From Desulfobacterales bacterium (lineage in GTDB: Bacteria > Desulfobacterota > DSM-4660 > Desulfatiglandales > Desulfatiglandaceae), in assembly GCA_014382905.1 (NCBI GenBank), contig JACNIU010000151.1:1-62176 (forward strand): a stretch of DNA of 62,176 bases. Direction: 5' to 3'. The position numbers and the translations under genes were made by a program. The notes beneath the pieces were generated by a model. That model ran no database searches. It was not told the origin of the DNA and saw only the letters and a program-made list of their open reading frames with translations. Below are positions 1,297 to 20,226 of this stretch, in pieces. How positions within the stretch are numbered: position 1 is the first letter of the stretch; each line of letters starts with the position of its first letter.

Positions 1297-1317
1297 CAGA
1301 TCTCACCAATTGGTAAT

Positions 1318-1350: not shown

Positions 1351-1407
1351 TAAAGATCCGGGCCCGATGAATGATGTTTCCCGTAACTGAATCGAGGAAT
1401 CCAGTGT

Positions 1408-3375
1408 ATGGACAAAAATAGTAGAACGGAAAAACCAAAAACCATGCCGGCAGGCAGATACCGGGAACTTAAAGGGATTTACAGGTGGTATTTTCTTGGC
1501 TTTACCGCCTTTGCCGCCATCCTCTCTTTTATTCATGTCTTTAAAATCGTCCTGTTTGACTATATGATGCCGGAGATGTCTTACTTCGCCGTCTTGATCG
1601 CAGCTTTTGTCTCACCCACTTTCTTACTGTTCCCTGCCACCAAAAGATCGCCGAGGGACCGGGTACCCTGGTACGATGCGCTATTTGCCCTCGCCAGCCT
1701 CCTGGGTCCCATCTATATTTTTATCTATAACATGGATATCCTCCTCGGCGGATGGGAGGTGTTTCCCCCTCCGACGGCAAAGGTCCTGGCACTGATTATG
1801 TGGGCACTCATCATTGAAGCTGTCCGGCGGGCCGGTGGTACCATGTTGGCAGCCGTCATTCTCTTGGTGTCACTCTACCCCCTTTTCGCTCACCTCTGCC
1901 CCGGGATCCTGATGGCCAAACAATATTCCCTCTCACGCATCCTGGGTTTCCATTTCTTGGGCATGCAGAGCATTTTCGGTCTTCCCACCCAGGTATTCTG
2001 CCGGCTGCTCATTGGATATATGATATTTGCCGTCACCCTTCAGGTTACGGGTGCTGCCGATTTTTTTATCAACTTCTGCCTTTCCATCTTAGGGTCAGTA
2101 AGAGGCGGGGCTGCCAAGGTCTCGATCCTCTCGAGCGCTTTTTTCGCAACCATGTCCGGGAGCGCCATTGCCAACGTGGTCACCACCGGCGCGGTGACCA
2201 TTCCCACCATGAAACGTTTAGGATACCCGCCCTATTATGCGGCCGCCATTGAGGCATGCGCCTCCAAAGGGGGGGTGCTCACGCCGCCCGTAATGGGAGT
2301 TACGGCCTTTATTATGGCCGATTTCATAGGGGTGTCTTATGCCCAAGTGTGTATCGCCGCCGCCCTCCCGGTGTTTCTCTACTGGGTTTCGCTTTTTGCC
2401 CAGACCGACTTCTATGCGGCAAAAATGGGGCTGCGTGGTTTGCCCAGACATGAGCTTCCCTCGCTGTTGCCGACCCTCAAGAACGGCTGGTTCTACATCG
2501 TGGCCCTTGGGGTACTTGTTTATGTCATCTTTATGCACAGGATGGAGGAGCTGGCTCCCTATTATGCCACGGCTGTCCTTCTGATTCTGGCCAACTTCCG
2601 GAAGGACACCAGGGTAAATAGGGGAATGGTCATCCGGCTGACAGACGGGACCGGGAAGATACTGACAGAACTCATGGGGATACTGGTCGGCGTGGGCATG
2701 ATCATCGGGGCGCTCTCCCTCACCGGGACCGCCCACGGGCTTTCCGGATCCTTGACACGGCTCGGGGGTGACCACATGCTCCTCCTCCTTATTATAGGAG
2801 CGGTGACCAGTTTTCTATTGGGCATCGGCCTGACCATTTCAGCCTGTTATATCTTCTTGGCCATGCTCCTCGCCCCTACCCTCGTGAACCTCGGGGTTTA
2901 CGAGATGTCCGCCCATCTGTTTCTGGTCTACTGGGGGTCGGTCTCTTATATTACGCCGCCTGTTGCGCTGGCCGCCTATGCAGCGGCGAGCATCGCCGGA
3001 TCGGATCCGCTCAAGACTGCATTTCAAGCCGTAAAATTGGGGTTCGTCTCTCTCCTGGTACCCTTCTTCTTCGTCTATAATCCGGCACTGGTCGCCCACG
3101 GGACCTTTCTTCAGATCCTCCAGGCCATGGGTACGGCCACACTGGGCATCATTCTGCTCAGCGCAGGGTTTGAGGGGTACTGCTTTTTTCTGAAAAAAAT
3201 CTCCATCCCTGTTCGCATCCTCTTTATGGCAGCGGGATTCCTTGTGTTTCATCCGAAAGGTACGACGGATTTAATCGGTCTTGGCCTGATTCTTTTGGGC
3301 CTGGCCGTCCACTATATGGGAAAGCCGGTGATAAAAAAACGGGAAGCCCCACCCATAGAAACTACGAAAACCTGA
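1408..3375 (+). CDS. TRAP transporter fused permease (TAXI-type DctQ/DctM fusion)
   Basis: 655-aa highly hydrophobic multi-span ORF adjacent to the TAXI receptor. Paralogous to 20281..22227, sharing blocks such as VRGGAAKVSILSSAFFATMSGSAIANVVTTG. Confidence 0.85.
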   Translation: MDKNSRTEKPKTMPAGRYRELKGIYRWYFLGFTAFAAILSFIHVFKIVLFDYMMPEMSYFAVLIAAFVSPTFLLFPATKRSPRDRVPWYDALFALASLLGPIYIFIYNMDILLGGWEVFPPPTAKVLALIMWALIIEAVRRAGGTMLAAVILLVSLYPLFAHLCPGILMAKQYSLSRILGFHFLGMQSIFGLPTQVFCRLLIGYMIFAVTLQVTGAADFFINFCLSILGSVRGGAAKVSILSSAFFATMSGSAIANVVTTGAVTIPTMKRLGYPPYYAAAIEACASKGGVLTPPVMGVTAFIMADFIGVSYAQVCIAAALPVFLYWVSLFAQTDFYAAKMGLRGLPRHELPSLLPTLKNGWFYIVALGVLVYVIFMHRMEELAPYYATAVLLILANFRKDTRVNRGMVIRLTDGTGKILTELMGILVGVGMIIGALSLTGTAHGLSGSLTRLGGDHMLLLLIIGAVTSFLLGIGLTISACYIFLAMLLAPTLVNLGVYEMSAHLFLVYWGSVSYITPPVALAAYAAASIAGSDPLKTAFQAVKLGFVSLLVPFFFVYNPALVAHGTFLQILQAMGTATLGIILLSAGFEGYCFFLKKISIPVRILFMAAGFLVFHPKGTTDLIGLGLILLGLAVHYMGKPVIKKREAPPIETTKT

Positions 3376-5050: not shown

Positions 5051-6202
5051 TCATAGGCCCATCATTTTTGTTAGGATCCGCTTCATGATTTCGGTCGTAC
5101 CCCCCACGATGGTCTGAACCCTGACATCGCGATAGAGACGGCAGATCAGATATTCCTCCATGTAGCCATAACCGCCATGGAGCTGGAGGCACTGATAGGC
5201 CACACGATTGGCCATTTCCGTCAGCCACCACTTCCCCATGGACACCCTCCGCGTGATATCTTTCCCCTCCATGTGGTCCTCGATGAGGGATTCCAGGAAC
5301 GTCCGGCCCATCTCAATTTCCGTGGCCATCTCCACCAGTTTAAAGGAATTGTGCTGAAAGCTGGAAACCGGTTTCCCAAACGCAGTGCGGCTCTTTGCAT
5401 ATTCAAGGGTGATCTCTAACATCTTTTCCGCAATGTTTACGGCGCCGATGCAGACCACCAGCCGCTCCTGCTGAAGGTTTTGCATCAGGATATGAAACCC
5501 CCTCCCCTCCTGACCCAGAAGATAGTTAGAGGGCACCCGGCAGTCCTCAAAAATTAGCTCCGCCGTGTCCTGGGAGTGCATCCCCATCTTCCTCAGTTTT
5601 CTCCCCTTAATAAAACCGGGGGCGTCCGCGGGAATCAGGATGAGGCTGACCCCCTTGTAATCGGGTACGGCATCAGGGTCGGTTCTGACGGCAAGGACGA
5701 TCCAGTCGCAGTTGATCCCATTAGAGATGAAGGTCTTCTGGCCGTTGATGACATAGGTGTCCCCCGCTTTGCGGGCGGTGCTCCTGAGGGAAGCCAGATC
5801 AGAACCGCAATCGGGCTCGGTCATGCCGATGGCCATGATGATATCTCCGGTAGTGCACCCGGGCAGGATCATGTCTTTTTGTTCCTCGGTGCCGCTTTCT
5901 ACCAGATAGGGTACCACAATATCCGAATGGACCCGGACCCCGGTGGAAATGCCGGTACACGTGGACCGGGCCAGTTCCTCCTGTACGATCACCGAGTAGC
6001 CGAAATCCACACCTGAGCCTCCATAGGCCTCCGGGATGCAGGGACACAGAAAGCCCTGTTCCCCCATCTTGTGCCACACGTCGCGCGGAACGCCCCTTTC
6101 CTCCTCCCACGTGTCGGTATTGGGTCTGACCTCCTTTTCAACAAAACGACGGACGCTCCGCTGAAAGATACTGTGGTCTTCGGTAAACCACGTTCGGTTC
6201 AT
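5051..6202 (-). CDS. Acyl-CoA dehydrogenase
   Basis: Motifs GMTEPDCGSDLASL and LQLHGGYGYMEEY. The start is moved to ATG 6202 (MNRTWF...), which follows GAGGAGGAGAAGATA. The track start at 6232 would overlap the upstream hydratase gene. Confidence 0.88.
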   Translation of the reverse strand: MNRTWFTEDHSIFQRSVRRFVEKEVRPNTDTWEEERGVPRDVWHKMGEQGFLCPCIPEAYGGSGVDFGYSVIVQEELARSTCTGISTGVRVHSDIVVPYLVESGTEEQKDMILPGCTTGDIIMAIGMTEPDCGSDLASLRSTARKAGDTYVINGQKTFISNGINCDWIVLAVRTDPDAVPDYKGVSLILIPADAPGFIKGRKLRKMGMHSQDTAELIFEDCRVPSNYLLGQEGRGFHILMQNLQQERLVVCIGAVNIAEKMLEITLEYAKSRTAFGKPVSSFQHNSFKLVEMATEIEMGRTFLESLIEDHMEGKDITRRVSMGKWWLTEMANRVAYQCLQLHGGYGYMEEYLICRLYRDVRVQTIVGGTTEIMKRILTKMMGL

Positions 6203-6221
6203 TATCTTCTCCTCCTCGACC

Positions 6222-7001
6222 CTATCTGCCACGAAAAACAGGCTTTCTCTTCTCTAAAAAGGCGGTTACGCCTTCATTTTTGTCCTCGGTCGCGCAGAGC
6301 CGGGAAAAGGCCTCATTTTCCATATCCAGCCCCATTTCAAGAGTTTGCTGGAGTCCCTTTGAGGATACCTTCTTGGCTGCCCTCACCGCCAGAGGGCCTT
6401 TGCTGTTGATCTTGTCTGCGAGTTCCAGAGCGGCCTCTCTCAGAGAAGTGAGGGGAACGACCTTCTGGACCAGCCCGATTCTTAGTGCGGCCTCCGCCGG
6501 TATGGCCTCTCCTGTAAACAACAGATAGTTTGCCCAGCCCGGTCCTACTGCACGGGGGAGCCGCTGGGTCCCGCCGGCCCCCGGGATAAGACCCAGGTTG
6601 ACTTCAGGAAGTCCAAGTTTGATATGATCCGCGGCAATTCTAATATCGCATACCAGGGCCAGTTCCAGTCCGCCGCCAAGGCACAGGCCGTTGATAGCTG
6701 CGATAACGGGCTTTTCAAAATCGTCCAGCCCGCTGAAAAAGTCGCGTGTACCCCGTACCCGCTCGAGCCCGCTCTTACGGTCAAGTTCCACAAGCCCCGG
6801 TATGTTTGCCCCGGCCATAAAAAACTTCTCGCCAGCCCCGGTCACGATAAGGCTCCACACCTGATCATTTTTTGACAATTCCCGCAATTTGTCCATGAAT
6901 TCAACCCTGAGTTCGGGGCTCAGCGCATTTGCCGGAGGATTGTCAATTGTGGCGACAGCCACTTTACCGTTAATCTCAATTCGAACTTTCTCTGACTCCA
7001 T
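6222..7001 (-). CDS. Enoyl-CoA hydratase/isomerase (crotonase family)
   Basis: [24 protein letters not shown] and the FMAGANI oxyanion-hole segments. Confidence 0.9.
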
Positions 7002-7274
7002 TTTCTATCCCCCCATGGCACATAAAACCACGTGTGATCAACAATTTCCTTGACATCTAATTTAAAATCTAATTATTTTATTAATTAAATCTGTAACACT
7101 TGCCGATTAACCCAAATTGGGGATGATGTCAACCCCGATGTTGCAAAAACATCCGTAGGACGGTCCACATTTCCGTTGAATCATTAACCCCTGAACCTTT
7201 GAACCTTGAACCTCTAAACCCGGGAACGGTTACCGTTTCCCATACCCGCATAGACAAGAGCCAAGGGATGTATC

Positions 7275-8939
7275 ATGGAAGAAACGCTGAAAGAAATCCA
7301 AAAAGAGAAGGCACGCTGGAGCCGGACAGTTTCCAAAAAGCGCCCCGCTCCCCAGCGTTGCACAGACTGGGGTGAACCGGTCGAGATGCTGTATACCCCG
7401 GCCGACCATGACGACACAGACTATCTGACGGATACCGGCTTTCCGGGGGAATATCCTTTTGTAAGGGGGGTCCATCCCAGTATGTATCTGGGCCGGCCAT
7501 GGACCATGCGACAGTATTCCGGATTCGGTACGGCAGAGGAAACCAACCGTCGATTTAAGTATCTGTTAGAACAGGGCCAGACCGGCCTTTCTGTTGCCTT
7601 TGACCTTCCCACCCAGATCGGATACGACTCAGATCATCCCATGAGCGAAGGAGAAGTGGGCAAGGTGGGCGTGCCGGTAGATTCTCTGAAGGATATGGAG
7701 CTGATCTTCCGGGACCTGCCCCTTGCTAAGCTGTCAACCTCCATGACCATTAACGCCCCGGCAGCAATCCTGTTGGCCATGTATGTGGCCGTCGCAGAGA
7801 AACAGGGGGTTTTATCTGAAAAGCTCCGCGGGACGATTCAAAACGATATCCTGAAGGAATATACGGTCAGGGGGACATATATTTTCCCTCCGCGTCCTTC
7901 CATACGGCTTATCACCGATATCTTTGCCTTCTGCAGCAAACATGTGCCGCTATGGAACAGCATCAATGTGGCGGGTTACCACATGCGTGAGGCGGGCTGT
8001 TCGGCAGTCCAGGAGATCGCCTTCAGTTTTTCCAATGCCATCGCGTATATTGAAGCGGGTCTTCAGGCCGGGCTGGATATTGACAGCTTTGCGCCAAGGA
8101 TAAGCTGGATTTTCAATACCCATAACAAGATATTCGAGGAGGTGGCCAAGTACCGTGCCGCCAGGAAGGTGTGGGCCGACATCGTCCGATACAGGTTCAA
8201 CGCCAGGGACCCGCGATCGTGGATGCTTCGCTTCCACACGCAGACATCGGGTGTCAGCCTCACGGCACAGCAACCGGAAAACAATACGGTACGCGTGGCC
8301 TACCAGACCCTGGCCGCGGTATTAGGGGGGGCACAATCGATTGCGGCATGCTCCTTTGATGAGGCCCTGGCACTCCCCACGGAAAAGTCGGTCAGGCTCA
8401 GCCTCAGAACCCAACAGATTCTTCTGCACGAAGCAGGGGTCACCGATACGGTGGATCCCTTAGGTGGGTCTCACTATGTGGAATCTCTCACCCGGAAAAT
8501 GGTCCGGGATATCAAAAGGCTGATTGAAAAGATCGACGAGATGGGTGGAGCGGTAGCCGCAATAGAGAACGGATATATACAGAAGGAAATCGAAGGGAGG
8601 GCATACGCCTTCCAGAAGGAGATTGAAAATAAGAACCGGATAGTGGTAGGCGTAAATGAATACAGGGTAGAAGAGCGCCCGGACTTTGCTATTTTCAGAC
8701 CGGACCCGGCCCATGCACGCAAACAAATATCCGACCTTCAAAGGCTGAGGAAGACCAGGGATCAGGACAGGGTTAAATCCGCCCTGGATCTCGTGCGAGA
8801 GGCCGCCCGGGAGCATAAAAACCTTATGCCCTTGTTTATAGAAGCAGTAAAAGCGTATGCGACCCTGGGTGAGATCTGTGGTGTTCTCAGAGACGTGTTT
8901 GGAGAGTATCAACAGGCTGATACACTCAGGAAGAGATGA
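7275..8939 (+). CDS. Methylmalonyl-CoA mutase-type acyl-CoA mutase, large catalytic (substrate-binding barrel) subunit; no B12-binding domain
   Basis: PGEYPFVRGVHPSMYLGRPWTMRQYSGFGTAEE, GLSVAFDLPTQIGYDSD, RGTIQNDILKEYTVRGTYIFPP. The 554-aa length matches the split-type large subunit. Confidence 0.9.
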   Translation: MEETLKEIQKEKARWSRTVSKKRPAPQRCTDWGEPVEMLYTPADHDDTDYLTDTGFPGEYPFVRGVHPSMYLGRPWTMRQYSGFGTAEETNRRFKYLLEQGQTGLSVAFDLPTQIGYDSDHPMSEGEVGKVGVPVDSLKDMELIFRDLPLAKLSTSMTINAPAAILLAMYVAVAEKQGVLSEKLRGTIQNDILKEYTVRGTYIFPPRPSIRLITDIFAFCSKHVPLWNSINVAGYHMREAGCSAVQEIAFSFSNAIAYIEAGLQAGLDIDSFAPRISWIFNTHNKIFEEVAKYRAARKVWADIVRYRFNARDPRSWMLRFHTQTSGVSLTAQQPENNTVRVAYQTLAAVLGGAQSIAACSFDEALALPTEKSVRLSLRTQQILLHEAGVTDTVDPLGGSHYVESLTRKMVRDIKRLIEKIDEMGGAVAAIENGYIQKEIEGRAYAFQKEIENKNRIVVGVNEYRVEERPDFAIFRPDPAHARKQISDLQRLRKTRDQDRVKSALDLVREAAREHKNLMPLFIEAVKAYATLGEICGVLRDVFGEYQQADTLRKR

Positions 8940-8964
8940 GTTAAAATTAGAAGGAGGAGATTAT

Positions 8965-10407
8965 ATGGCTACTGTGGGAATAAGCGCATGCGGGGGTTAC
9001 ATACCTTACCTCAGGCTGGATCGAGGCGTCGTCGCCCAGATATGGGGAAGACATTCCATCGGCGGGGAAAGGAGTGTGGCCAATAATGACGAAGACAGTA
9101 TTACAATGGCTGTTGAGGCCTCAAGGAACTGCCTGGGAGGACAGGCTCCTGAACAGGTGGACGGGCTCCTTTTTGCCACGACCACTCCCCCCTACAAGGA
9201 AAAGATGAACGCCTCGCTGATTGCAGCCGCTGCGGACTTGAGAAGGGAGATCACTACGGCTGACTTTGCCCACTCACTGAGATCAGGGACCGCGGCCCTC
9301 AAGGCGGCCTTTGACTCGGTAAAGAGCGGTTCCATGGGAAATGCCCTCGTAGTGGCCTCGGATAGCCGCATCGGATATCCGAGATCAGACCAGGAGCAGG
9401 CCTTTGGCGACGGTGCCGGTGCCATTATGGTGAGTTCGGAGAACCTCTTGGCAACCTTGGAAGGGGGTTATTCCATCTGCAATGAGATGATGGACGTCTG
9501 GAGGAACCCGGAAGATACGTTTGTCCGGACCTGGGAAAGCCGTTTTATCTTAGGGGAAGGATATGCCAGCCATATGAAAGAGGCCGTTTCAGGGTTGCTG
9601 AAAAAATATGGTCTTGGGCCCAAAGAGATATCAAAGGCCATCCTGCCCGGCCCTGACATCCGGTCCCAGAAGACCCTGGCAAAACAGTTGGGCTTCGACA
9701 GCACGACACAGGTGCAGGACCCCCTGCTGTCGAACGTGGGGCATTGCGGTGCTGCCCATCCATTGCTGATGTTGGTGGACGCCCTTGAAGAAGCGAGTCC
9801 GGGCGACATGTTGCTCCTGGCCAATTATGCCGATGGCGCGGATGCAATGCTGTTCAAAGTGACAGACGAGATTGAAACAAAGAAAAACCAGCGCAGGGTG
9901 AAGGATTACATAAAGGAAAAAGCCCTTCTCCCCTCATATGCCCGGTTCCTGAGTTACAAGGGATTAGTTGAAACAGCCCCCGGAGAACCCTTTCGTCTGA
10001 TGCCTTCGGCAACAGTAAGCTGGAGGGACCGAAAGACCATCCTCAGATGCCACGGGAGCAGGTGCAACGCGTGCGGCAAGACCACCTTTCCGATTCAACG
10101 GGTCTGCTATCACTGCCATGCAAAAGACAACTTCGATGAAGTTCCCATCTCCCACCTAAAAGGGGAAGTATTCACGTTCACCTTGGACAACCTTGCCGGC
10201 AGGAGTGATGATCCTGTGGTGGTTCAGACCATAGCCGATCTCGGAGAAGACAAGATCCGGTTTTACGGCATGATGACAGACTGTGACCCATCTGAGGTCA
10301 GGTTGGGCATGCCGGTCAGTCTCACCTTCAGACGAATCTATGACGGCGCAGGTATGCATAACTATTTCTGGAAATTCAGGCCTGTGAGAAATGGGAGGAG
10401 TGAATAA
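8965..10407 (+). CDS. Archaeal-type HMG-CoA synthase-like domain fused to a C-terminal DUF35 (Zn-ribbon + OB-fold) domain
   Basis: ATG at 8965 follows AGGAGGAGATTAT. The N-terminus VGISACGGYIPYLRLDR...NNDEDSITMAVEA resembles archaeal HMGCS. The C-terminus CNACGKTTFPIQRVCYHCH...GEVFTFT is DUF35-like. See finding on missing catalytic residues. Confidence 0.75.
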   Translation: MATVGISACGGYIPYLRLDRGVVAQIWGRHSIGGERSVANNDEDSITMAVEASRNCLGGQAPEQVDGLLFATTTPPYKEKMNASLIAAAADLRREITTADFAHSLRSGTAALKAAFDSVKSGSMGNALVVASDSRIGYPRSDQEQAFGDGAGAIMVSSENLLATLEGGYSICNEMMDVWRNPEDTFVRTWESRFILGEGYASHMKEAVSGLLKKYGLGPKEISKAILPGPDIRSQKTLAKQLGFDSTTQVQDPLLSNVGHCGAAHPLLMLVDALEEASPGDMLLLANYADGADAMLFKVTDEIETKKNQRRVKDYIKEKALLPSYARFLSYKGLVETAPGEPFRLMPSATVSWRDRKTILRCHGSRCNACGKTTFPIQRVCYHCHAKDNFDEVPISHLKGEVFTFTLDNLAGRSDDPVVVQTIADLGEDKIRFYGMMTDCDPSEVRLGMPVSLTFRRIYDGAGMHNYFWKFRPVRNGRSE

Positions 10408-11594
10408 TGGGGAGCATAAAAGATCAAGTCGCCATCGTCGGAATGGGGTGCAGCAAATTTGGCGAGCGGTGGGAAAAGGGACCGGAAGACCTGGCCATCG
10501 AGGCGGCATACGAGGCTTTCGAAGACGCAGGGATCAGCAAAGACGATCTGGAGGGATGCTGGTTTTCTCAGGTCATGGCCCCTGTCATCGGGGTTTCAGG
10601 GACCGTTGCCGTCGACTCCCTGAAACTGGGAAATATCCCTGTCATTCGAAATGAGAACTGGTGTGCATCCGGCCACATCGCACTCCTTGAAGCGTGCATG
10701 GCGGTTGCCAGCGGGGCATATGACCTTGTGATGGCCCTCGGGGTGGAGAAACTGAAGGATACCGGGTTCCCGGGTCTGGGTACGGGAAGGGGGATGCATC
10801 CGGTGTACGAGGCCAGGAGGACCTCGCCGGGGTCGTTCGGGTTGATCGCCCAGCGGTATTTCAAGACCTACGGACTCACTGTGGAGGAAGGCCGGGAGGC
10901 ATTGGCCAAGATAGAGGTCAAGAACCATGATAACGGGAGCCTCTGCCCCAAGGCCCATTTTCACAACAAAATAACAGTGGAACAGGTCCTAAACGCACCG
11001 ATTATCGCCTGGCCCTTGGGCCTCTTTGACTGCTGCGGCAACAGCGACGGTGCCGCATGCGCCATTGTTACGACGGCTGAAAAGGCGAAGGATTTCCGGA
11101 AGGACCCGATTTTCCTGAAAGGGTTTGGGATCTCCACGGACGCCATGATACCGCACTTCAGGCCGGAGTTCGGCTGGACCAGCTTTGACGCCCTGGTAAC
11201 GTCTTCGCACAAGGCCTATGAAATGGCCGGGATCAAAGACCCCCGCAAGGAACTGGATCTGGCCGAGGTGCACGACTGCTTTTCCATCACAGAACTTCTG
11301 ATATACGAGGATTTCGGGTTCAGCCCCAGGGGAAAGGCCCGGGAGGATATTGATGCCGGGTTTTTCACCCGGGAAGGCGGTCTCCCGGTAAATATCGACG
11401 GGGGGCTGAAATGCTTCGGGCACCCGATCGGGGCGAGCGGGCTGAGAATGACCTACGAGGTGTACAAGCAGTTGCAGGGGAAGGCCGATCTGCCTGAACG
11501 GCAGATAAAAAACCCCAGGCTCGGGCTGGCACATACCTTTGGCGGGCCGCCGCAGATCAGCGCGGTCGCCATTTTCGGGAATGAGAAGGGATAG
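10407..11594 (+). CDS. SCP-x / nonspecific lipid-transfer-type thiolase
   Basis: Nucleophile segment NWCASGHIALLEA and C-terminal GGLKCFGHPIGASGL. The start overlaps the upstream stop (TAATG). Confidence 0.85.
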   Translation: MGSIKDQVAIVGMGCSKFGERWEKGPEDLAIEAAYEAFEDAGISKDDLEGCWFSQVMAPVIGVSGTVAVDSLKLGNIPVIRNENWCASGHIALLEACMAVASGAYDLVMALGVEKLKDTGFPGLGTGRGMHPVYEARRTSPGSFGLIAQRYFKTYGLTVEEGREALAKIEVKNHDNGSLCPKAHFHNKITVEQVLNAPIIAWPLGLFDCCGNSDGAACAIVTTAEKAKDFRKDPIFLKGFGISTDAMIPHFRPEFGWTSFDALVTSSHKAYEMAGIKDPRKELDLAEVHDCFSITELLIYEDFGFSPRGKAREDIDAGFFTREGGLPVNIDGGLKCFGHPIGASGLRMTYEVYKQLQGKADLPERQIKNPRLGLAHTFGGPPQISAVAIFGNEKG

Positions 11595-11625: not shown

Positions 11626-12564
11626 ATGTCCGAGGCCATCGACCGCTATGTGAGAGATGGAGACGTTGTATATCTGGGTGGCTTCATCCAGCAGGAGCCG
11701 TTTGCAGCGGTCCATGAGATCATCAGACAGGGGAAGAACGATCTCACAGTCTCAAAGTGTGCGGCCCTGATACTCGTGGATCAGATGATCGGGGCAGGGG
11801 TGATTCGTCATCTGATCACCACCTTCACGTGGAATCCTCTGCCGGCCCCGGCACACTGTTTCGTCCGCGCCCTGACCAGAGAGGTCCCCCACAGGATCGA
11901 AATCGAGGAATACTCCATCCTAACCCTGAACCTGGCCTATTTTGCAGGGGCTCTAAATCTCCCCTATGTGGCGACCAAGACCCTGTTGGGCTCCGGATTT
12001 GACAGGGAACAGAGCGATTCCGGGGTCAGGAGCAGGTTGAGATTTGAGACGTCTCCGTTTACCGGTGAACGGGTCTGTCTGGTCCCGCCGATAAAGCACG
12101 ACGTGGGGATCATGCAGGCCCAGAGATCAGACCCATATGGGAATACCCAGGCATGGGGGATGTTGGGGGAGGTTCGATACGCCCTGCAGAGCTGCGACAG
12201 GCTCATCATATGTGCCGAGGAGATCGTCGATACGGATGTTATCATGCGCGACCCCAACCGCACTCTTGTGCCGGCGTTTCGCGTGAGTGCCGTAGTGGAG
12301 GAACCATGGGGAAGCCACCCCGCGCCCATGGCCGGATATTATGACATGGACTGGCCCTACAATGCCTATTACGAGAAAGAAACCCGTACAGAGGATCTGT
12401 TTCAAGGGTTTATGAACAAATGGGTTTATGACACGAAAGACCGAAAGGATTATCTGAATCTGGTCGGGGAAGACCGGTTGAAGGCCCTTGGCCCGGAGCG
12501 GTTTGCGTCAGACCCCGTTTCCTACGGCAAACTCACCCGTCATATCAGGACGCCATATGTCTGA
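11626..12564 (+). CDS. CoA-transferase subunit A (glutaconate CoA-transferase family)
   Basis: MSEAIDRYVRDGDVVYLGGF... is typical of GctA-like subunits. The start is uncertain: ATG 11581, TTG 11602 and ATG 11626 are all in frame. Confidence 0.8.
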   Translation: MSEAIDRYVRDGDVVYLGGFIQQEPFAAVHEIIRQGKNDLTVSKCAALILVDQMIGAGVIRHLITTFTWNPLPAPAHCFVRALTREVPHRIEIEEYSILTLNLAYFAGALNLPYVATKTLLGSGFDREQSDSGVRSRLRFETSPFTGERVCLVPPIKHDVGIMQAQRSDPYGNTQAWGMLGEVRYALQSCDRLIICAEEIVDTDVIMRDPNRTLVPAFRVSAVVEEPWGSHPAPMAGYYDMDWPYNAYYEKETRTEDLFQGFMNKWVYDTKDRKDYLNLVGEDRLKALGPERFASDPVSYGKLTRHIRTPYV

Positions 12565-13372
12565 TACAAATGAAAAGGTCACGCCCATCGAGCAGATGAT
12601 CGTATCTGCCGCAAGATTGATAAAGGACGAGAGTGTCCTGATGGTCGGCACCCAGTGGCCCATCATTGTATCCCTGCTGGCCAAATCCCTCCATGCCCCC
12701 GGCATCACCATCTGTTATGAGGGTGGCGTTATCCTGCACAAGGTCCCCGAGCGTATCCCGCTTTTCACGGCGGACCCGGTAGTCAACTCGAGTTCAGTAC
12801 TATTGGGCAGTTCCTTTGACACATTGGGCGCCGTCCTTCACGGCGGAAGGGCCGACATGGCGCTGTTGTCGGCCGCCTCGGTGGATCGTTACGGAAACAT
12901 CAATACGACCTGTATCGGAGATTACACATGCCCCAGGGTCCGTTTCGGGGGGAGCGGCGGGGCATGTGATTTCGGGAGCCTTGCACCCAAGACCGTCATT
13001 ATCCTTGAACATGACCGGCAGCGGTTTCCCGAGCAGGTTGATTTTATCACGACCCCCGGTTACCTGAAGGGAAAGGGGGATCGCATTCGGGCAGGTCTCA
13101 GACCGGACACCGGTCCCTATGCAGTGGTCACAACGTTGGGGCTTTTTCAATTTGATGAAGAAGGCGAGATGGTACTCAGGGCCCATAACCCCGCTGTATC
13201 CATTCGGGAGGTAAAGGAGGGTGTTCAATGGGACCTGAAGATCCATAAGGACGTGCGCCCCCTTGATCCCCCAAGTGAAAAGGAATTGCGCGTGTTGCGG
13301 GAGCAGCTTGATCCGGAGGGGATGTATTTGAGGGATGCGAGACGACTTAATGAAAAGGAAGGCGTCATCTAA
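12557..13372 (+). CDS. CoA-transferase subunit B
   Basis: ATG at 12557 overlaps the subunit A stop (ATGTCTGA). The sequence MSDTNEKVTPIEQMIVSAARLI... is GctB-like. Confidence 0.8.
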   Translation: MSDTNEKVTPIEQMIVSAARLIKDESVLMVGTQWPIIVSLLAKSLHAPGITICYEGGVILHKVPERIPLFTADPVVNSSSVLLGSSFDTLGAVLHGGRADMALLSAASVDRYGNINTTCIGDYTCPRVRFGGSGGACDFGSLAPKTVIILEHDRQRFPEQVDFITTPGYLKGKGDRIRAGLRPDTGPYAVVTTLGLFQFDEEGEMVLRAHNPAVSIREVKEGVQWDLKIHKDVRPLDPPSEKELRVLREQLDPEGMYLRDARRLNEKEGVI

Positions 13373-13460: not shown

Positions 13461-14246
13461 ATGGACTTTAAAGATATTATCTACAGGAAGGAAGATGGGA
13501 TAGCCCATATCATCATTAACAGACCGGAGAAGCGAAATGCCCTTAACCGGGCCGCCAGGCTGGAGATGATGGAGGCCTTGGGGGATGCGGAAAACGATAT
13601 GGCCGTAAAGGTGCTGATCCTTTCAGGCGCCGGGGAAAAGAGTTTTATGGCAGGGTCTGACCTCAACGAGCTTTCAAAATTTTCCCCCTTAGAGATGGAG
13701 AGATTCACCTCAACGTTGGGGGGCAGGTTTTATACGAGATTCGAGCAGTCCGACAAACCCGTCATTGCCATGATAGACGGTCTCTGTCTCGGCGGCGGGC
13801 TCGAACTGGCCCTGGCCTGTGATATCCGGATCGCGTCGAACGCGTCCAAATTCGGGCAACCTGAGATGTTCCTGGGCATCATGCCCGGGAGCGGTGGGAC
13901 ACAACGGCTCCCCAGGCTTGTGGGACCGGGGAAGGCCAAGGAACTCATCCTTACGGGGAAGACCATCGACGCAACAGAGGCGCTCCGGATAGGGCTGGTG
14001 AATCAGGTGGTTTCACGAGATGGATTAGAGGAGACCGTAATGACCGTTGCAAAGCAGATCGCCAAACAGAGCCCCCTCGCACTGAAATGGGCCAAGAAGG
14101 CCATCAACATGTCCCAGGAAACCGGTCTGGGGGCCGGGATCGCCTATGAGACCTTGGCCGATTGCCTTCTTTTTTCCGGGAAGGATCGTGAAGAAGGGAT
14201 GAAGGCATTCTTTGAGAAACGAAAACCCCAATTTAAAGGAGAATAA
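13461..14246 (+). CDS. Enoyl-CoA hydratase/isomerase (crotonase family)
   Basis: [26 protein letters not shown]; FMAGSDL. Confidence 0.9.
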   Translation: MDFKDIIYRKEDGIAHIIINRPEKRNALNRAARLEMMEALGDAENDMAVKVLILSGAGEKSFMAGSDLNELSKFSPLEMERFTSTLGGRFYTRFEQSDKPVIAMIDGLCLGGGLELALACDIRIASNASKFGQPEMFLGIMPGSGGTQRLPRLVGPGKAKELILTGKTIDATEALRIGLVNQVVSRDGLEETVMTVAKQIAKQSPLALKWAKKAINMSQETGLGAGIAYETLADCLLFSGKDREEGMKAFFEKRKPQFKGE

Positions 14247-14256: not shown

Positions 14257-15402
14257 ATGATCGATTTTGAGCTTTCAGAGGAAAACCGTATCTTTCGCAG
14301 TGCTATTCGGGACTTCGCACAGAAGGAAATCGCGCCGCTGGTGGATGAGGCAGAAGAAACACACACATTCCCCAGACAACTGTTCCGGAAGATGGGGGAA
14401 CAGGGATTTCTCTGCCCGAGATATCCGGTGGAATTGGGTGGGGGCGGCGGCGACAAGATAACGGAATGCATCATGGTGGAGGAGATCAACAGGGTCAATG
14501 CGGGGATTGCGGCCGCACTGATGGCACAGAGCGGTCTCGCCACCCAGCCCATCTACCGGTTCGGGTCCGATGAACAAAAACAGAAATTCCTGATCCCGGC
14601 CATCAAGGGGGAAAAGATCGGGGCCTTTGGACTGACCGAGCCGAATGTGGGGTCGGACGCGGCCGCCATCCAGTCAAAGGCCGTCCGTGCCGGGGACAAC
14701 TACCTGATCAATGGGACCAAGATGTTCATCACCAACGGCCCGATCTGTGACTATGTGATCGTGGCCGCATACACTGACCCAACCCAAAGGGGGGTTGGTA
14801 TCAATCTCTTTATTGTTGAAAAAGGCACACCCGGGTTTACGGTCTCCCGGAAACTGGACAAGGTGGGGAACTGGTCCGCCGAAACCGGCGAACTGGTATT
14901 TGACGACTGCGCGGTTCCGGCCAAGAACATGATTGGAGAAAAAGAAGGGGGCGGGTTTGATCAACTGGCCGATACCCTTGTCTCAGGCCGGATAACCTAT
15001 GGCGCACGATGTACAGGCACTGCCCAGGCCGCGTATGACCTGACCGCGCAATATGCCAAGGAGCGGGTCCAGTTCGGGAAACCGATCGTAAAATTCCAGA
15101 ACACCCGGTTCAAACTTGCGGAAATGGCCACCTACATTGATATCATGCGGAGCTACACCTATCGGGTGGCCCGGATGTATGATACGGGAAAGAACGTCCG
15201 TAAGGAGGCTGCCATGGTCAAGCTCTTTACCGCGGAAATCGTTCAGAAAATCCTGGCCTATTCCATGCAGATTCACGGGGGGTACGGATACATGATGGAA
15301 TATCCGATCCAGAGATTCTGGCGGGATGGAAGGTTATACACTGTCACCGAAGGAACATCCGAGATTCAACGGCTGATTATCGCAAAGGAGCTGGGGCTCT
15401 GA
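14257..15402 (+). CDS. Acyl-CoA dehydrogenase
   Basis: ATG 14257 follows AAAGGAGAATAAGG. Motifs GLTEPNVGSDAAAI and MQIHGGYGYMMEY. Confidence 0.9.
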   Translation: MIDFELSEENRIFRSAIRDFAQKEIAPLVDEAEETHTFPRQLFRKMGEQGFLCPRYPVELGGGGGDKITECIMVEEINRVNAGIAAALMAQSGLATQPIYRFGSDEQKQKFLIPAIKGEKIGAFGLTEPNVGSDAAAIQSKAVRAGDNYLINGTKMFITNGPICDYVIVAAYTDPTQRGVGINLFIVEKGTPGFTVSRKLDKVGNWSAETGELVFDDCAVPAKNMIGEKEGGGFDQLADTLVSGRITYGARCTGTAQAAYDLTAQYAKERVQFGKPIVKFQNTRFKLAEMATYIDIMRSYTYRVARMYDTGKNVRKEAAMVKLFTAEIVQKILAYSMQIHGGYGYMMEYPIQRFWRDGRLYTVTEGTSEIQRLIIAKELGL

Positions 15403-15441: not shown

Positions 15442-16548
15442 ATGGAAAAATGGAGGTTTGTGGAAGTGGACTGGTTGAGCTATGCGGAAACGGCAATCTA
15501 CAGACCGGTCCTTATGCGCGCCGTGAGCGAAGGGGCGGTCCAGGAGACGGTCTCCTTTTGCAGGTTTCCGGTACCCAGCCTGGTCCTCAATTTCTTTAAC
15601 GACCCACAAAAGGAAATCAATCTGGGGCTTTGTAAGAGAAAAAACATCCCGGTGTATCGAATCATCTCCAGCGGGGGCCCGATCTTTGGAGATACCGGGT
15701 ACATCTTTACCTTCCTGCACCTGAAGAGAACCAATCCAAAGGTTCCCCCGGACGTCCCCAAGATGTTTGAAAAGACACTTACCGGGATTGCACAAGGGAT
15801 TTCGGATTACTTTGGAATCGAGAGCCGGTTCAGACCGCTCAACGATATCGAAGTCCGATGCGATGATGGCGCCTGGAGAAAAATTGGCCCCTCTTCCTGT
15901 TTTTATGAAGAAAAGGCAATCCAGATGGGTTCCGGAATTCAGGTGAAGGCTCCTGATGTCGATCTCATTGCCGAGGTCATCTCCGCGCCACCCGAGAAGT
16001 TTGTGGACAAGGAGGCAAAAAGCATCCAGGAGAGGATAACATATCTTGAAAAGGTCGTGGGGAGAGAGATTGATCTCAGGGAGATTAGAGATATCTATGT
16101 GGCTCAGATCGAGAAGGTATTCCAGGTAAGATTGGATCCCGGAGAACTCACAGATAAAGAAAGAGGATATTACGGTGAAATGGAGAGGGAGTATACCAAT
16201 GAGGATTTTTTCATGGAGCGGGCCGAAGAGACGTTGGGTGTTATCCCTCAGGACGTTACCCGGAAAATGATTCAGTTCAAGGTCCCGGAAGGCCCTTTTA
16301 TGAGGATCATTGTCTTGACAAAAGACAATCGAATCAAGGATATGATTATCTCCGGCACGATTCACGCCTCTCCTTTAAGGCCCACCACGCCGATTCACGA
16401 GATTGAAGCGGCACTGAGAGGTCAACCGATTGACAAAGATCTTTTTGAGTCCAGGATTGGCAAAGTGCTGACCCGCCAGGGCTTTCATATCGCCAAGGTT
16501 TCCGCGGAGTTCTTGGCAAAAAAAATCTATGATTGCGCACTCTCCTGA
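15442..16548 (+). CDS. Lipoate-protein ligase A (LplA/BPL-LPL) family protein, paralogue 1
   Basis: Two-domain LplA-like layout. RPLNDIEVRCDDGAWRKIGPSS corresponds to the LplA adenylate-binding lysine segment. The C-terminal IISGTIHASP resembles the LplA accessory domain. Confidence 0.7.
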   Translation: MEKWRFVEVDWLSYAETAIYRPVLMRAVSEGAVQETVSFCRFPVPSLVLNFFNDPQKEINLGLCKRKNIPVYRIISSGGPIFGDTGYIFTFLHLKRTNPKVPPDVPKMFEKTLTGIAQGISDYFGIESRFRPLNDIEVRCDDGAWRKIGPSSCFYEEKAIQMGSGIQVKAPDVDLIAEVISAPPEKFVDKEAKSIQERITYLEKVVGREIDLREIRDIYVAQIEKVFQVRLDPGELTDKERGYYGEMEREYTNEDFFMERAEETLGVIPQDVTRKMIQFKVPEGPFMRIIVLTKDNRIKDMIISGTIHASPLRPTTPIHEIEAALRGQPIDKDLFESRIGKVLTRQGFHIAKVSAEFLAKKIYDCALS

Positions 16549-16634
16549 CTCAAAAAGAGAAACGATCGGGGTACTCACCTATTTGACGAGGTCTGTATCT
16601 GTATAATGAGTTCCAGGCATAGTGAGGTGTTGAA

Positions 16635-17843
16635 ATGATAAAAGAAGTCATAGAACCGCTGAGGGCGCAGCTTGAAAGGCTTAACCAGATAGCCTTTTAT
16701 AAGCAGAAGATCGAAAATGCAGGGATTCACCCGTCGGACACAAAGGCCTTGGATGATTTCCAAAATATTCCTTTCACAACCACCTCCGAGCTAATGAAAG
16801 AGCTGAGGAAAAAGCCCTCGGAATCTTCTCTCTTTTCTGATGACGTGACCCGCATCAATTTTTCTCCATCAGGACACGACCTGTATCCGGTATACCACAC
16901 CCATAATGATCTCCAAAAGATGCACCAGGTCTGCGGCCGTTCCTTAGAGGCCGCGGGTGTCCAGAAAGGGGATATCTGTGCGGTAACGTTCGGATACCAT
17001 CTCTTTATTGCCGGGCTCTTCTACCAGGGACAACTGGAATACTACGGGGCCAAGGTCATCCCTGTGGGTCCGGGTGAATCCGAGAGGGCCGTCCAACTCA
17101 TCAACGACTACCAGGTATCCGTCCTGATTTCAAATCCTACCTTCGCGATGAAATTGACCCAAAAAGGAATCCCCAGTGTGAGGATTCTGTTTGTGGGGGG
17201 AGAACCGTTTACATCAGTGGAGGGGTATCCGGAAAAGGTCCGGGAGGCCTTTGGAAGAGAGATCACCATAATAGATTCCTACAGCATGGCCTTATGCATG
17301 CCGATTGCCCGCAGTTGCACACATGGAACAGGGCTTCATGTCATGGACGATTTTGTTTATGCCGAAGTCATCGATCCTGAAACAGGCAACGCTGTCCCTT
17401 ATGGGGAGAAGGGTGAACTGGTCTTGACCCACCTGCACAAGGAGGCCGCCCCTTTACTGCGATACCGTACCGGGGACCTGACCCTTTTGGAGAAAAAGAG
17501 ATGTGAGTGCGGAAGAGAGTTGACGTTGCCGAAGAGCGTTTTTGGCCGTACCGACGAAATGCTCAAGATAAAGGGTGTCAAATTCTGGCCGTCGCAAATC
17601 AGTGGGATTCTTCGGGCATTTCCCGGACTCACGAGCAGATATCAGGTGGTCGTCAGAACAAAGGGCGGAGTAGATTTTCTCCGGTTGACGGTGGAAGGGG
17701 ATGATACATCAAGCCCGGGTATCGATGAACTGTCAAAACGGCTGAAGCAGGAGACCCTCCTGGCCTTTAACGAGATACGCGTCGCAAACAAATTAGAGGA
17801 AGGGCCGGCAGTGGTCGATGAACGCAAGGGGAGGCGTTTTTAA
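16635..17843 (+). CDS. PaaK-like (phenylacetate-CoA ligase / coenzyme F390 synthetase family) adenylate-forming enzyme, divergent
   Basis: LRYRTGDLT and GRTDEMLKIKGVKFWPSQI are typical of the PaaK family. The N-terminus has the PaaK-type NIPFTTTSEL. The phosphate-loop segment is atypical (see finding). Confidence 0.75.
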   Translation: MIKEVIEPLRAQLERLNQIAFYKQKIENAGIHPSDTKALDDFQNIPFTTTSELMKELRKKPSESSLFSDDVTRINFSPSGHDLYPVYHTHNDLQKMHQVCGRSLEAAGVQKGDICAVTFGYHLFIAGLFYQGQLEYYGAKVIPVGPGESERAVQLINDYQVSVLISNPTFAMKLTQKGIPSVRILFVGGEPFTSVEGYPEKVREAFGREITIIDSYSMALCMPIARSCTHGTGLHVMDDFVYAEVIDPETGNAVPYGEKGELVLTHLHKEAAPLLRYRTGDLTLLEKKRCECGRELTLPKSVFGRTDEMLKIKGVKFWPSQISGILRAFPGLTSRYQVVVRTKGGVDFLRLTVEGDDTSSPGIDELSKRLKQETLLAFNEIRVANKLEEGPAVVDERKGRRF

Positions 17844-17863
17844 TAACATGAGGTAAAAAGCGG

Positions 17864-18964
17864 ATGGAACAGCTCAGGCTCATAAGAACGGGATATAATT
17901 ATGCGGATTTCTCAACGAGTATCTCACCCGCCATTGAACTTGCCTTAGAGAAGAGGCAGGCGGCAAGTGCCGTTGTCCTGAATGTCTTTCGTGGCGGCAG
18001 TTTCACTTCAGGGTTTCTCGATGATCCGGAGAAGGCCCTTGACCTGGAGTACTGCAGACAAGAAGGGATTGTGGTCAGGCGGCGACAAAACGCGGGCGGG
18101 GCTATCTGGGGTCCGGATGGTGGGGCACTGATAGTCCTGTATGTGGATACCCGGCTGCCGTGGGTGCCGATGAAAACAATAAAGGACGCATTCGGCATAA
18201 CACTGAACCGGTTGGCGGAAGCAGTCCGTGAGCTGTTTGAGGTGGAGGCGGTTTACAGACCACTCAACGATGTGGAGGTGGAAGGGCGAAAGCTGATCCC
18301 CACTTCAGCAAGGCTCGAGAAAGAGATCCTGACCATGCGTCTGCTGGTCAATGTCGTTCCCACTGATCCGAACATTTTGAAAAAGGCCATCATCACACCT
18401 CCTGAAAAGACCCAGGACAAGAAAATTAAAGACCCGGGCGCCCGGTTTACGTGTCTGGAAATAGAGGCAGGGAGGAAGATCTCCCATTCAGAACTCTTGA
18501 CACTTACCAGCAAGACCGTAGAAAAGATCTTCGGGACCACCGTCCAGCTTGTGCCCGGGGAGTTGAGTGATCTGGAGAAGACCTATGCCGCCGAATACCA
18601 GAAGGAGTATACATCAGAGGCGTGGTTTTATGCCAACTCCGAGCGGATGCGATTTAAGGAAATTCCTCCCGATGCGGCCAAGTGCGAGGGGAGGCACAAG
18701 GCGCCTGCAGGGTTGATTCGTGTGACACTGCTCATCACAAAAAACAGGATCCACGATCTCATTATTACTGGGGATTTCCATCCGGCGCCATACCAGGTCC
18801 TGAGAGAGATGGAAAATGTGGTGAGGGGGAAAGAATGCAACTTGGACATAGTGGAAAATGAGATCCAACAGATCTTTGATCGATCCGATGTGGAGATTGC
18901 AGGCACGGAAGTAAAGGATTTTGTTGGGGCCTTTTCTATGGCCTTTCGAGACATCGAAAAATAA
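17864..18964 (+). CDS. Lipoate-protein ligase A (LplA/BPL-LPL) family protein, paralogue 2
   Basis: VVRRRQNAGGAIW matches the LplA RRxxGGGAV motif. NDVEVEGRKLIPTSARL is the lysine segment. The C-terminal IITGDFHPAP resembles the LplA C-terminal domain. Confidence 0.8.
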   Translation: MEQLRLIRTGYNYADFSTSISPAIELALEKRQAASAVVLNVFRGGSFTSGFLDDPEKALDLEYCRQEGIVVRRRQNAGGAIWGPDGGALIVLYVDTRLPWVPMKTIKDAFGITLNRLAEAVRELFEVEAVYRPLNDVEVEGRKLIPTSARLEKEILTMRLLVNVVPTDPNILKKAIITPPEKTQDKKIKDPGARFTCLEIEAGRKISHSELLTLTSKTVEKIFGTTVQLVPGELSDLEKTYAAEYQKEYTSEAWFYANSERMRFKEIPPDAAKCEGRHKAPAGLIRVTLLITKNRIHDLIITGDFHPAPYQVLREMENVVRGKECNLDIVENEIQQIFDRSDVEIAGTEVKDFVGAFSMAFRDIEK

Positions 18965-19068: not shown

Positions 19069-20226
19069 ATGTCACATTTCAGGTTTGGAAAGAATGGCGT
19101 CATTTTTATGGTTTGCGTTTCACTTATCTTTTTCGGCTTCCTTGCTTCGGCCGGTGCGGAAGAATCGGTTTCATTGCCCAAGACAATGATATGGAGTTGT
19201 TACGATGTGGGGGCCTCCGGCTATGTGCAGGCATCCGCCATTGCAGATGCCTTTGTCAAGAAATATGGGATCCGGATCCGATTGCTGCCGTCCGGGACAT
19301 CAATAGGGAGGCTGATGCCGCTGACCACCAAAAGAGTCATTTGCGGCTTTCTGGCAAATGAGGTCTTTTTTGCTGTTGAGGGACTTTATGATTTCTCCAC
19401 CATCGAATGGGGGCCGCAGGATCTCAGGGTCCTCCTGGCACACCCCACAACCATCGCCTTAGCAACCACGAAGGAATCCGGTATAAAGGCGATAAAGGAT
19501 CTGAAAGGCAAACGGGTTTCATGGATCCCGGGTGCCCCCACGTTAAACATAAAGGCTGAGGCCTTTCTCGCCTTTGGCGGTATGACGTGGAACGATGTCA
19601 ATAGGGTTGAATTCCCCAGTTACGGTGCGGCATGCAAGGCCCTGATAGAGGGCAAGACCGATGCATCCGTTGTATCCACCTCTGCATCGATCATGTATGA
19701 GTTGGAAACCTCACCAAGAGGCCTGTTCTGGGTCCAATTCCCTCCGTCTGACAAGGAAGGCTGGGACAGGATGTTGAAGATAGCACCCTTTCTCAGCCCC
19801 AAAAAAGAGACAGTCGGCGCAGGCATATCCAAGGAGAATCCCGTTTACCTGCCAGGATACCGCTATCCCATGATCACGGTCTATGCGAATGCTGACCCGG
19901 AATGGGTCTATAACTTCGTAAAGGCCCTGGATCAGACGTATCCCATGTATGAGAAGGCCCATGCGGTAATGCCTGATTGGAAGATATCTGAGTCAGGCGT
20001 TCCGCCCGCAGACGCTCCTTTCCACGTGGGCGCCATAAAATATCTAAAGGAAAAAGGGGTTTGGACGGCCAAAGATGACGAATGGAACAAGGCGCGTCTC
20101 GGGCAACTGAAGAAGGTGCAGGGGGCATGGGAAAAGACGGTCGCAGAAGCAGAGGCAAAGAAGATCAAATCGAAGGAGTTCCCGGAATTCTGGATGAAAC
20201 AGAGGGCGGCGGCCTTGAACCAGTAA
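19069..20226 (+). CDS. TAXI-family TRAP transporter solute-binding protein (second copy)
   Basis: RBS AAAGGAGG; signal peptide ...VCVSLIFFGFLASAGAEE. Paralogous to 238..1296, with a shared C-terminus (FHxGAIxYxKExGVWT). Confidence 0.85.
   Translation: MSHFRFGKNGVIFMVCVSLIFFGFLASAGAEESVSLPKTMIWSCYDVGASGYVQASAIADAFVKKYGIRIRLLPSGTSIGRLMPLTTKRVICGFLANEVFFAVEGLYDFSTIEWGPQDLRVLLAHPTTIALATTKESGIKAIKDLKGKRVSWIPGAPTLNIKAEAFLAFGGMTWNDVNRVEFPSYGAACKALIEGKTDASVVSTSASIMYELETSPRGLFWVQFPPSDKEGWDRMLKIAPFLSPKKETVGAGISKENPVYLPGYRYPMITVYANADPEWVYNFVKALDQTYPMYEKAHAVMPDWKISESGVPPADAPFHVGAIKYLKEKGVWTAKDDEWNKARLGQLKKVQGAWEKTVAEAEAKKIKSKEFPEFWMKQRAAALNQ

Follow-up and report, generated by a model that had tools for sequence, protein, structure and literature searches.

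Complexes of a thiolase with a DUF35 protein, with or without a subunit of the 3-hydroxy-3-methylglutaryl-CoA synthase (HMGCS) type, have been described for archaea and bacteria. Here, we compare with them a gene pair from a 62,176-nucleotide (nt) contig of a Desulfobacterales bacterium (JACNIU010000151.1, assembly GCA_014382905.1; the whole stretch is referred to as the window, and its features lie on the forward strand unless noted otherwise). Gene A (8965–10407) encodes a 480-aa protein in which an HMGCS-like domain is fused to DUF35, as judged from its open reading frame (ORF), Pfam, NCBIfam and PDB matches and an AlphaFold2 model, while gene B (10407–11594) encodes a 395-aa SCP2-type thiolase. 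In the archaeal complex of M. thermolithotrophicus (6ESQ/6ET9), the thiolase, HMGCS and DUF35 subunits are all homologous to the modules of the window pair, and CoA in 6ESQ is bound at the interface of all three proteins (PMC6392133). There, however, the DUF35 protein is a separate chain and the HMGCS is active (E82, C114, H238, N270) and, on the way to mevalonate, draws the thiolase reaction toward condensation, whereas the synthase site of the window protein is gone. The Glu-Cys-His-Asn tetrad of the synthase was defined by Liao et al. (Nat Commun 2026; PMC12960953), who showed that a quadruple tetrad mutant of the archaeal enzyme is inactive and reported 1,030 bacterial loci in which genes for HMGS, ACAT and DUF35 co-occur.

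In PhlACB of P. protegens (5M3K/5MG5) and MucABC of S. macacae (9VBO/9VBT), an inactive HMGCS homolog is a required non-catalytic subunit, and the DUF35 protein bridges PhlA or MucA to the thiolase-fold catalytic subunit. PhlA possesses neither the Cys nor the Glu, only Cys88 of PhlC acts, and formation of the active Phl(A2C2)2B4 complex depends on PhlA as well as on PhlB (PMC6392133); in complexes with inactive HMGCS homologs, only the thiolase-like subunit is catalytic, although all subunits are necessary (PMC6392133; PMC12960953). Unlike in the window, DUF35 of PhlACB and MucABC is a separate chain of a three-subunit assembly, and the thiolase-like subunit, devoid of the HDxF motif, performs Friedel-Crafts acylation and is encoded in antibiotic clusters of the polyketide synthase (PKS) or nonribosomal peptide synthetase (NRPS)-PKS type. 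The window thiolase, in turn, retains an intact HDCF and is found in a catabolic context. BbsAB of G. metallireducens (7PXP) shares with the window pair the DUF35 subunit, the SCP2-type thiolase with HDxF and the location in an anaerobic β-oxidation-like operon, yet BbsA is a stand-alone DUF35 protein without an HMGCS-like domain. The respective models scored well under their cut-offs on the window proteins (BbsA, NF053627: 25.3 bits vs. 250; BbsB, NF053628: 157 bits vs. 750).

At the level of sequence features, and compared by published description, the window pair appears to match in every respect the PfACAT/HMGS-DUF35 complex of P. fluorescens (PMC12960953). That complex consists of a fused tetrad-less HMGS-DUF35 protein and an adjacent SCP2-type thiolase with Cys, HDxF and GHx, and PKS/NRPS neighbors are absent from both loci. 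Once expressed and assayed, it catalyzed thiolysis of acetoacetyl-CoA, formed neither HMG-CoA nor acetoacetyl-CoA, and nearly lost its activity upon an H294Y substitution in the thiolase (PMC12960953). Hence, the statement in a preliminary description of the window that no characterization of such an arrangement was known has been outdated since January 2026. The two systems differ in host (P. fluorescens vs. a Desulfobacterota-type anaerobe) and in gene context, as the authors took the P. fluorescens locus for an evolutionary intermediate to which no defined pathway belongs, while the window module lies inside a conserved mutase/CoA-transferase/β-oxidation operon. A literature search on DUF35 fused to hydroxymethylglutaryl-CoA synthase, or on DUF35 together with a thiolase and an anaerobic methylmalonyl-CoA mutase (MCM), returned nothing.

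Genes of this kind have also been encountered in named catabolic clusters. In N. tardaugens, the edc gene EGO55_13555, named "HMG-CoA synthase" and located beside a thiolase gene, was left unassigned, as a condensation made no sense there (PMC7793797). We found a full-length homolog of gene A (35% identical over 98% of the query) in the edc-type cluster on plasmid p3 of Novosphingobium sp. ES2-1, in the gene order acyl-CoA dehydrogenase–short-chain dehydrogenase/reductase–fusion–thiolase–enoyl-CoA hydratase; the tetrad columns of this fusion hold T/L/S/F, and motifs CATG, HDCF and GH are present in the thiolase paired with it. LrcC, designated "3-isopropenyl-3-hydroxy-glutaryl-CoA synthase" in the lrc operon for anaerobic limonene degradation, had a reverse-synthase cleavage step attributed to it on the basis of annotation only (PMC12583861). 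It carries PF08541 and PF12172, the same Pfam pair as gene A, and its gene adjoins that of the thiolase LrcD. Likened to the window fusion by this Pfam pair only, LrcC has an assignment that looks doubtful in the light of the tetrad data of homologs. EGO55_13555 and LrcC belong to other pathways than the window module (estrogen ring degradation and a limonene-derived acid, respectively), and their likeness to gene A is through a description or a homolog.

Architecture of the fusion and loss of the synthase tetrad

Gene A extends from an ATG at 8965 to a TAA at 10405–10407. The ORF list gives it as a 516-codon frame (8857–10407) that opens at an upstream ATG at 8857; we placed the start at 8965 because a Shine-Dalgarno-like AGGAGG (8952–8957), read from the sequence, lies 7 nt 5′ of this codon. 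Pfam recognized the N- and C-terminal halves of a KAS III-type domain followed by zf-ChsH2 and OB_ChsH2_C, i.e., the DUF35 domains. The HMGCS/KAS III-fold domain spans aa 1–335 (8965–9969), its alignment with the M. thermolithotrophicus HMGCS chain 6esq_I covering residues 2–335. The best NCBIfam model is that of archaeal HMG-CoA synthase (NF003274; residues 3–335, E 3.7e-62), although the score of 210.4 bits stays under the curated equivalog cut-off of 244, as does that for TIGR00748 (152.3 bits vs. 353). The top PDB sequence matches are PhlA homologs (9skh_A, E 2.3e-34; 5m3k_A, 3.1e-33), and matches were also found with 6esq_I (1.7e-30) and the MucA chain 9vbo_A (1e-24).

A linker of about 20 residues (approximately aa 336–355; 9970–10029) follows, in which the predicted local distance difference test (pLDDT) falls below 50 at residues 337–354; matches to HMGCS chains stop at residue 335, and those to DUF35 chains begin at 351. 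The DUF35 part comprises a zinc ribbon (aa 364–388; 10054–10128) with C367, C370, C381 and C384 (PF12172, 27.1 bits, above the cut-off of 23.2) and an OB-fold (about aa 393–473; 10141–10383), the latter delimited by PF01796 at residues 393–456 (24.7 bits, slightly under the cut-off of 27.1) and by the archaeal DUF35 chain 6esq_E, which matches residues 351–474 with an E-value of 1.1e-14. The AlphaFold2 monomer model (pLDDT 84.6, predicted TM-score 0.89) is nearest in fold to 6esq_I (Foldseek; TM-score 0.90, root-mean-square deviation 1.9 Å), with PhlA and MucA next (0.86 each). The N-terminal domain is thus predicted to have the HMGCS/KAS III fold of the thiolase superfamily. With E-values far below chance and recurrence in hundreds of genomes, the fusion architecture does not appear to be a chance match.

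Tetrad columns were read from MAFFT alignments in the numbering of 6esq_I, the sequence of which was rebuilt from HMMER output and checked to hold E, C, H and N at residues 82, 114, 238 and 270. In gene A, E82 is replaced by T73 (codon 9181–9183), C114 by L105 (9277–9279), H238 by P228 (9646–9648) and N270 by H260 (9742–9744). The preliminary description had read by eye an HMGCS-like N-terminus, a DUF35 C-terminus and the loss of the Glu, Cys and His; all of these stand in the profile and structural comparisons above, including the alignment to HMGCS models that it had called for, where none of the three residues is found at its expected position, and the Asn has to be added to the list. PhlA reads C, G, Q and D at the same columns.

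The substitutions are shared by the relatives of gene A. For column counts we used 98 non-identical full-length fusions from genome loci together with 91 partner thiolases. The Glu column is Thr in all 98 fusions, the Cys column contains no Cys (87 L, 6 V, 2 I, 2 T, 1 A), the His column no His, and the Asn is present in just 34, while the four Cys of the zinc ribbon are kept in 98/98. The picture is similar in a protein search (E ≤ 1e-10) that yielded 2,081 clusters, the best 120 of which have Thr at the Glu column in 118 cases, Leu at the Cys column in 117 and Pro at the His column in 115. The residue directly before the former nucleophile was Ser, Cys or Thr in all fusions examined. Moreover, conservation across phyla reaches at least 96% in the fusions at E79, E191, D91 and C56, residues that HMGCS and PhlA lack; most of them fall in loops with reduced pLDDT of the monomer model, and we tentatively read them as interface residues. 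T73 and D149 resemble what we take to be the "ATT" and "GDGA" motifs of KAS III enzymes.

The partner thiolase and spread of the two-gene module

Gene B matches NF004810 (515 bits, above the cut-off of 403), the archaeal thiolase 6esq_A (E 1.8e-62), the BbsB chain 7pxp_C (2e-42) and PhlC (1.9e-21). It keeps C86 (codon 10662–10664), H289-D290-C-F292 of the HDxF motif (H289, 11271–11273) and G338-H339 of GHx (H339, 11421–11423); C86, H289 and H339 align with C85, H284 and H336 of 6esq_A. Among the 91 partner thiolases, the nucleophilic Cys is present in 90, and HDxF and GHx in every one. The junction of the two genes (10393–10409) includes GGGAGGAG at 10393–10400, inside the 3′ end of gene A, followed by TAATG, in which the last base of the gene A stop codon (10407) is also the first of the gene B start codon. 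GGGAGGAG represents an internal ribosome-binding site located 7 nt 5′ of the gene B start. Both the single-nucleotide overlap and the intact thiolase Cys had been noted beforehand and hold.

The best 120 of the 2,081 clusters are all approximately 475–482 aa long, originate from Desulfobacterota-type metagenome-assembled genomes (MAGs) and frequently bear the name "HMG-CoA synthase (family protein)". With two conserved peptide patterns, at least 594 confirmed relatives were detected in a species-level genome set. Listed carriers include Desulfobacteraceae, Syntrophaceae, many Dehalococcoidia, Sterolibacterium, Sporomusa rhizae, Oleispirillum naphthae, Nitrospinota and Syntrophomonadaceae, as well as Asgard archaea (35–43% identity). 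Cultured organisms with the module include Sporomusa rhizae DSM 16652, Oleispirillum naphthae and Desulfomonile tiedjei. Full-length copies (32–35% identity) were also found on 53 plasmids, the hosts of which include Sphingobium, Rhodococcus, Novosphingobium, Variovorax and haloarchaea; catabolic plasmids of aerobes are among these carriers. Taken as a pair, the fusion and thiolase genes are found in Desulfobacterota, Chloroflexota, Bacillota, Pseudomonadota, Nitrospinota, haloarchaea and Asgard archaea.

The HMGCS-like and DUF35 parts are kept in one polypeptide over the full length in 104 loci. A thiolase gene begins at most 200 nt downstream of the fusion in 87 of them, and in eight a single hydratase gene is placed between the two. 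Locus L104 has a 0.7-kb gap between fusion and thiolase, and in L060 the contig ends just after the inserted hydratase gene. L096 is the only one of the 104 loci with no thiolase in the available flank; in the rest, the contig is cut too near the fusion gene to judge the linkage. In all 87 loci the thiolase is more similar to the window protein than is the fusion (median identities 68% vs. 51%), a gap that fits a catalytic subunit and a less constrained but still selected partner.

Some variants of the module were observed. The enoyl-CoA hydratase gene inserted between fusion and thiolase is characteristic of a Dehalococcoidia variant (L045–L052, L057, L060), and in L104 one thiolase gene is flanked by two fusion genes. 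Several MAGs hold two or more copies of the module (e.g., DEIJ01, VGNX01, JAXHSZ01), which suggests paralogs for different substrates. In Asgard and other archaeal MAGs (L019, L020, L021, L025, L026), the same tetrad-less fusion precedes a thiolase and reads T, L/T and Y at the first three tetrad positions; inactive fusions are therefore not confined to bacteria without the mevalonate pathway.

Proposed role of the fusion and competing explanations

We propose, with a probability of roughly three in four, that the gene A product is a non-catalytic partner that assembles and completes the thiolase. According to this proposal, an HMGCS fold without its tetrad, tethered to a DUF35 adaptor, would be translated together with the gene B thiolase, and fusion and thiolase dimers would join into a hetero-oligomer, by analogy with the thiolase/HMGCS/DUF35, PhlACB and MucABC complexes. 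By the same analogy, the fusion would stabilize the thiolase and contribute to a CoA-binding chamber that the subunits share at their interface. Catalysis would be left entirely to Cys86, His289 and His339 of the thiolase, which most likely cleaves a 3-oxoacyl-CoA thiolytically within the surrounding acid-degradation pathway; that the substrate is a branched or dicarboxylic acyl-CoA is a guess. The idea of a pseudo-enzyme scaffold, put forward in the preliminary description, seems to be best supported because the nearest structures are the archaeal HMGCS subunit and the inactive PhlA and MucA, because in complexes of the PhlA/MucA type catalysis is confined to the thiolase-like subunit and all subunits are nevertheless needed, and because the fusion and thiolase genes are almost invariably linked.

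Several points weigh against this proposal. We infer binding between these two particular proteins by analogy and not from direct observation. The invariant polar residues E79, E191, D91 and C56 could be a sign that ligand binding or catalysis has been retained, instead of delineating an interface. No Pseudomonas protein was among the listed matches, and the likeness to the assayed P. fluorescens protein is one of description. In addition, the encoded pathway is incomplete: the operon has no gene for a 3-hydroxyacyl-CoA dehydrogenase, and a motif scan over all frames of the window detected no B12-binding mutase subunit.

The conserved polar residues, together with the unvarying Ser, Cys or Thr ahead of the former nucleophile, are what speaks for an HMGCS-like domain re-tooled for a ligand-binding or catalytic role of its own rather than serving as a mere scaffold. 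Such a domain could split a 3-hydroxy-3-alkylglutaryl-CoA in a retro-Claisen reaction, the activity suggested for the thiolase-adjacent LrcC with the same Pfam pair (PMC12583861), or it could bind the second substrate or the product of the thiolase or the bulky acyl part of a complex 3-oxoacyl-CoA; if true, this would explain the recurrence of the module in pathways for acids derived from steroids, terpenes and hydrocarbons. Yet every residue known to be necessary for HMGCS chemistry in either direction is gone, the archaeal enzyme mutated at all four tetrad residues forms no HMG-CoA, and only activity of the thiolase type was seen with the fused Pseudomonas complex (PMC12960953). Furthermore, the LrcC assignment comes from annotation and not from an assay, and the position of the invariant residues, mainly in loops of reduced pLDDT, fits an interface better than a pre-formed active site, so we regard a re-tooled domain as unlikely. 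Another explanation has the complex working in the condensing direction: thiolase catalysis is reversible, a reversible or biosynthetic role has been discussed for thiolase/DUF35 pairs of the BbsAB type and of archaea (PMC12960953; bioRxiv 10.1101/2024.07.05.601840), and homologous fusion-thiolase pairs are present in Asgard archaea. However, a Claisen condensation, be it in reverse β-oxidation or in a fatty-acid-type synthesis of the kind suggested for archaeal ketothiolase/DUF35 pairs, would have no exergonic step to pull the unfavorable reaction without an active HMGCS. With a fused Pseudomonas complex that performed thiolysis and formed no acetoacetyl-CoA from acetyl-CoA (PMC12960953), and with uptake, activation and β-oxidation genes as neighbors, operation in the condensing instead of the degradative direction seems quite improbable.

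That the best PDB sequence match of gene A is PhlA, which like the window protein is without the HMGCS tetrad, might point to a Friedel-Crafts C-acyltransferase of the PhlACB/MucABC type acting on a small-molecule acceptor. Against it, the window thiolase keeps the HDxF motif lost in PhlC and MucB, it matches the archaeal ACAT far better than PhlC (1.8e-62 vs. 1.9e-21), DUF35 is fused rather than a separate subunit and no PKS/NRPS genes are located nearby. We rejected this very remote option on the motif evidence (retained HDxF). Least credible of all is a genuine HMG-CoA synthase, as suggested by many database names (including "3-hydroxy-3-methylglutaryl CoA synthase") and by the full-length match to the HMGCS profile. 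Gene A scores under both curated cut-offs (NF003274, TIGR00748) and has no tetrad, and true HMGCS enzymes mutated in the tetrad are inactive (PMC12960953); an active HMGCS was thus also rejected on motif evidence.

The concept of a non-catalytic scaffold has already been published by Liao et al. (PMC12960953), and the gain from our analysis is mainly one of annotation and context, the module here lying inside a mutase/CoA-transferase/β-oxidation operon. Thousands of database proteins of the fusion type are named "HMG-CoA synthase", and degradation studies have either left such genes unassigned (edc, PMC7793797) or given them a synthase-type step (LrcC, PMC12583861). Since the synthase machinery is missing from the fusion in every case examined, and the pairing with an intact SCP2-type thiolase is near-constant across many phyla, we suggest that the two genes be read as one thiolase unit in reconstructions of both anaerobic and aerobic catabolism. 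The fusion genes are, in turn, poor evidence for a mevalonate pathway and should not be counted as such. The data also suggest that selection maintains the module as a stable catabolic device, and that it is more than a transient evolutionary intermediate.

Genomic surroundings of the module

The gene preceding the module (7275–8939) encodes the large, substrate-binding subunit of an acyl-CoA mutase of the MCM type (PF01642, 720 bits) and ends 25 nt before gene A. Its Tyr (in RQY) and Arg (in TVRGTY) are retained at the positions of Tyr89 and Arg207 in 1req_A, whereas the large subunit of 2-hydroxyisobutyryl-CoA mutase has Ile and Gln instead. We take the Tyr/Arg pair to indicate a carboxylate-bearing substrate. 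Although the best PDB match is 4r3u, the 2-hydroxyisobutyryl-CoA mutase subtype was rejected given the MCM-type Tyr, Arg and "LSVAFD". A mutase homolog (41–85% identical) is present in 20 of the 104 loci and lies upstream of the fusion in those inspected; a more distant one (41–44% identity) is located further upstream in L011, L015 and L027.

Downstream of gene B, two subunits of a GctAB-like CoA-transferase are encoded, A at 11602 or 11626–12564 (PF01144; 1poi_A, i.e., GctA, E 1.6e-43) and B at 12557–13372 (PF01144), followed by an enoyl-CoA hydratase of the crotonase type (13461–14246; ECH_1) and an acyl-CoA dehydrogenase (14257–15402; Acyl-CoA_dh). From the mutase through the CoA-transferase, the genes form a same-strand run with gaps of at most 25 nt or overlaps. 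A divergent acyl-CoA dehydrogenase (5051–6232) and enoyl-CoA hydratase (6222–7001), both recognized by Pfam, occupy the minus strand upstream. The gene order of the window recurs in L003, L007, L009 and L010, with the divergent pair also conserved beside it in L007 and L010; genes for β-oxidation are neighbors of the module here, in many related loci and in the estrogen-degradation cluster of a plasmid. None of the dehydrogenases, hydratases and ligases reached an NCBIfam cut-off that would give a specific name. Pfam detected no PKS/NRPS assembly-line domains (ketosynthase, condensation or carrier-protein) in the window, the only adenylate-forming proteins of which are of the acyl-CoA-ligase type. 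A promoter and terminator scan performed no better than on shuffled sequence, and its lone sensibly placed site (7050–7079) was not relied on.

Farther out from the module, the window encodes an acyl-CoA ligase as well as TAXI-type TRAP transporters in two gene sets. These sets bracket the catabolic cluster at 220–3375 and 19069–22227, and each combines an NMT1_3 binding protein with a fused DctM-type permease (about 650 aa). An unusual grouping follows immediately downstream of the operon (15442–18964), where a PaaK-like adenylating enzyme is encoded between two paralogs of 368 and 366 aa that have a lipoate/biotin-ligase-type domain; the paralogs match PF21948 with E-values of 1e-16 and 1.6e-12, and the NCBIfam LplA models remain far below cut-off.

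The more distant part of the window carries a defense island on the minus strand (33879–42608) with a type I restriction-modification system composed of hsdR (33879–37049), hsdS (38660–39910) and hsdM (39907–41466). A DUF3800 gene (37659–38387) is positioned amid the hsd genes, and a gene with the Shedu SduA C-terminal domain (41670–42608) lies beside hsdM. A gene of the 3-hydroxyisobutyrate dehydrogenase family, followed by an acetyl-CoA-synthetase-like gene (ACAS_N and AMP-binding), occupies 43199–46155; these two may serve branched-chain or C3/C4 acid metabolism and be linked to the upstream operon. Finally, a glycogen cluster (50994–59225) encodes a GlgC-like nucleotidyltransferase, a DUF3417/phosphorylase-family protein and GlgB, with a 4-α-glucanotransferase on the minus strand.

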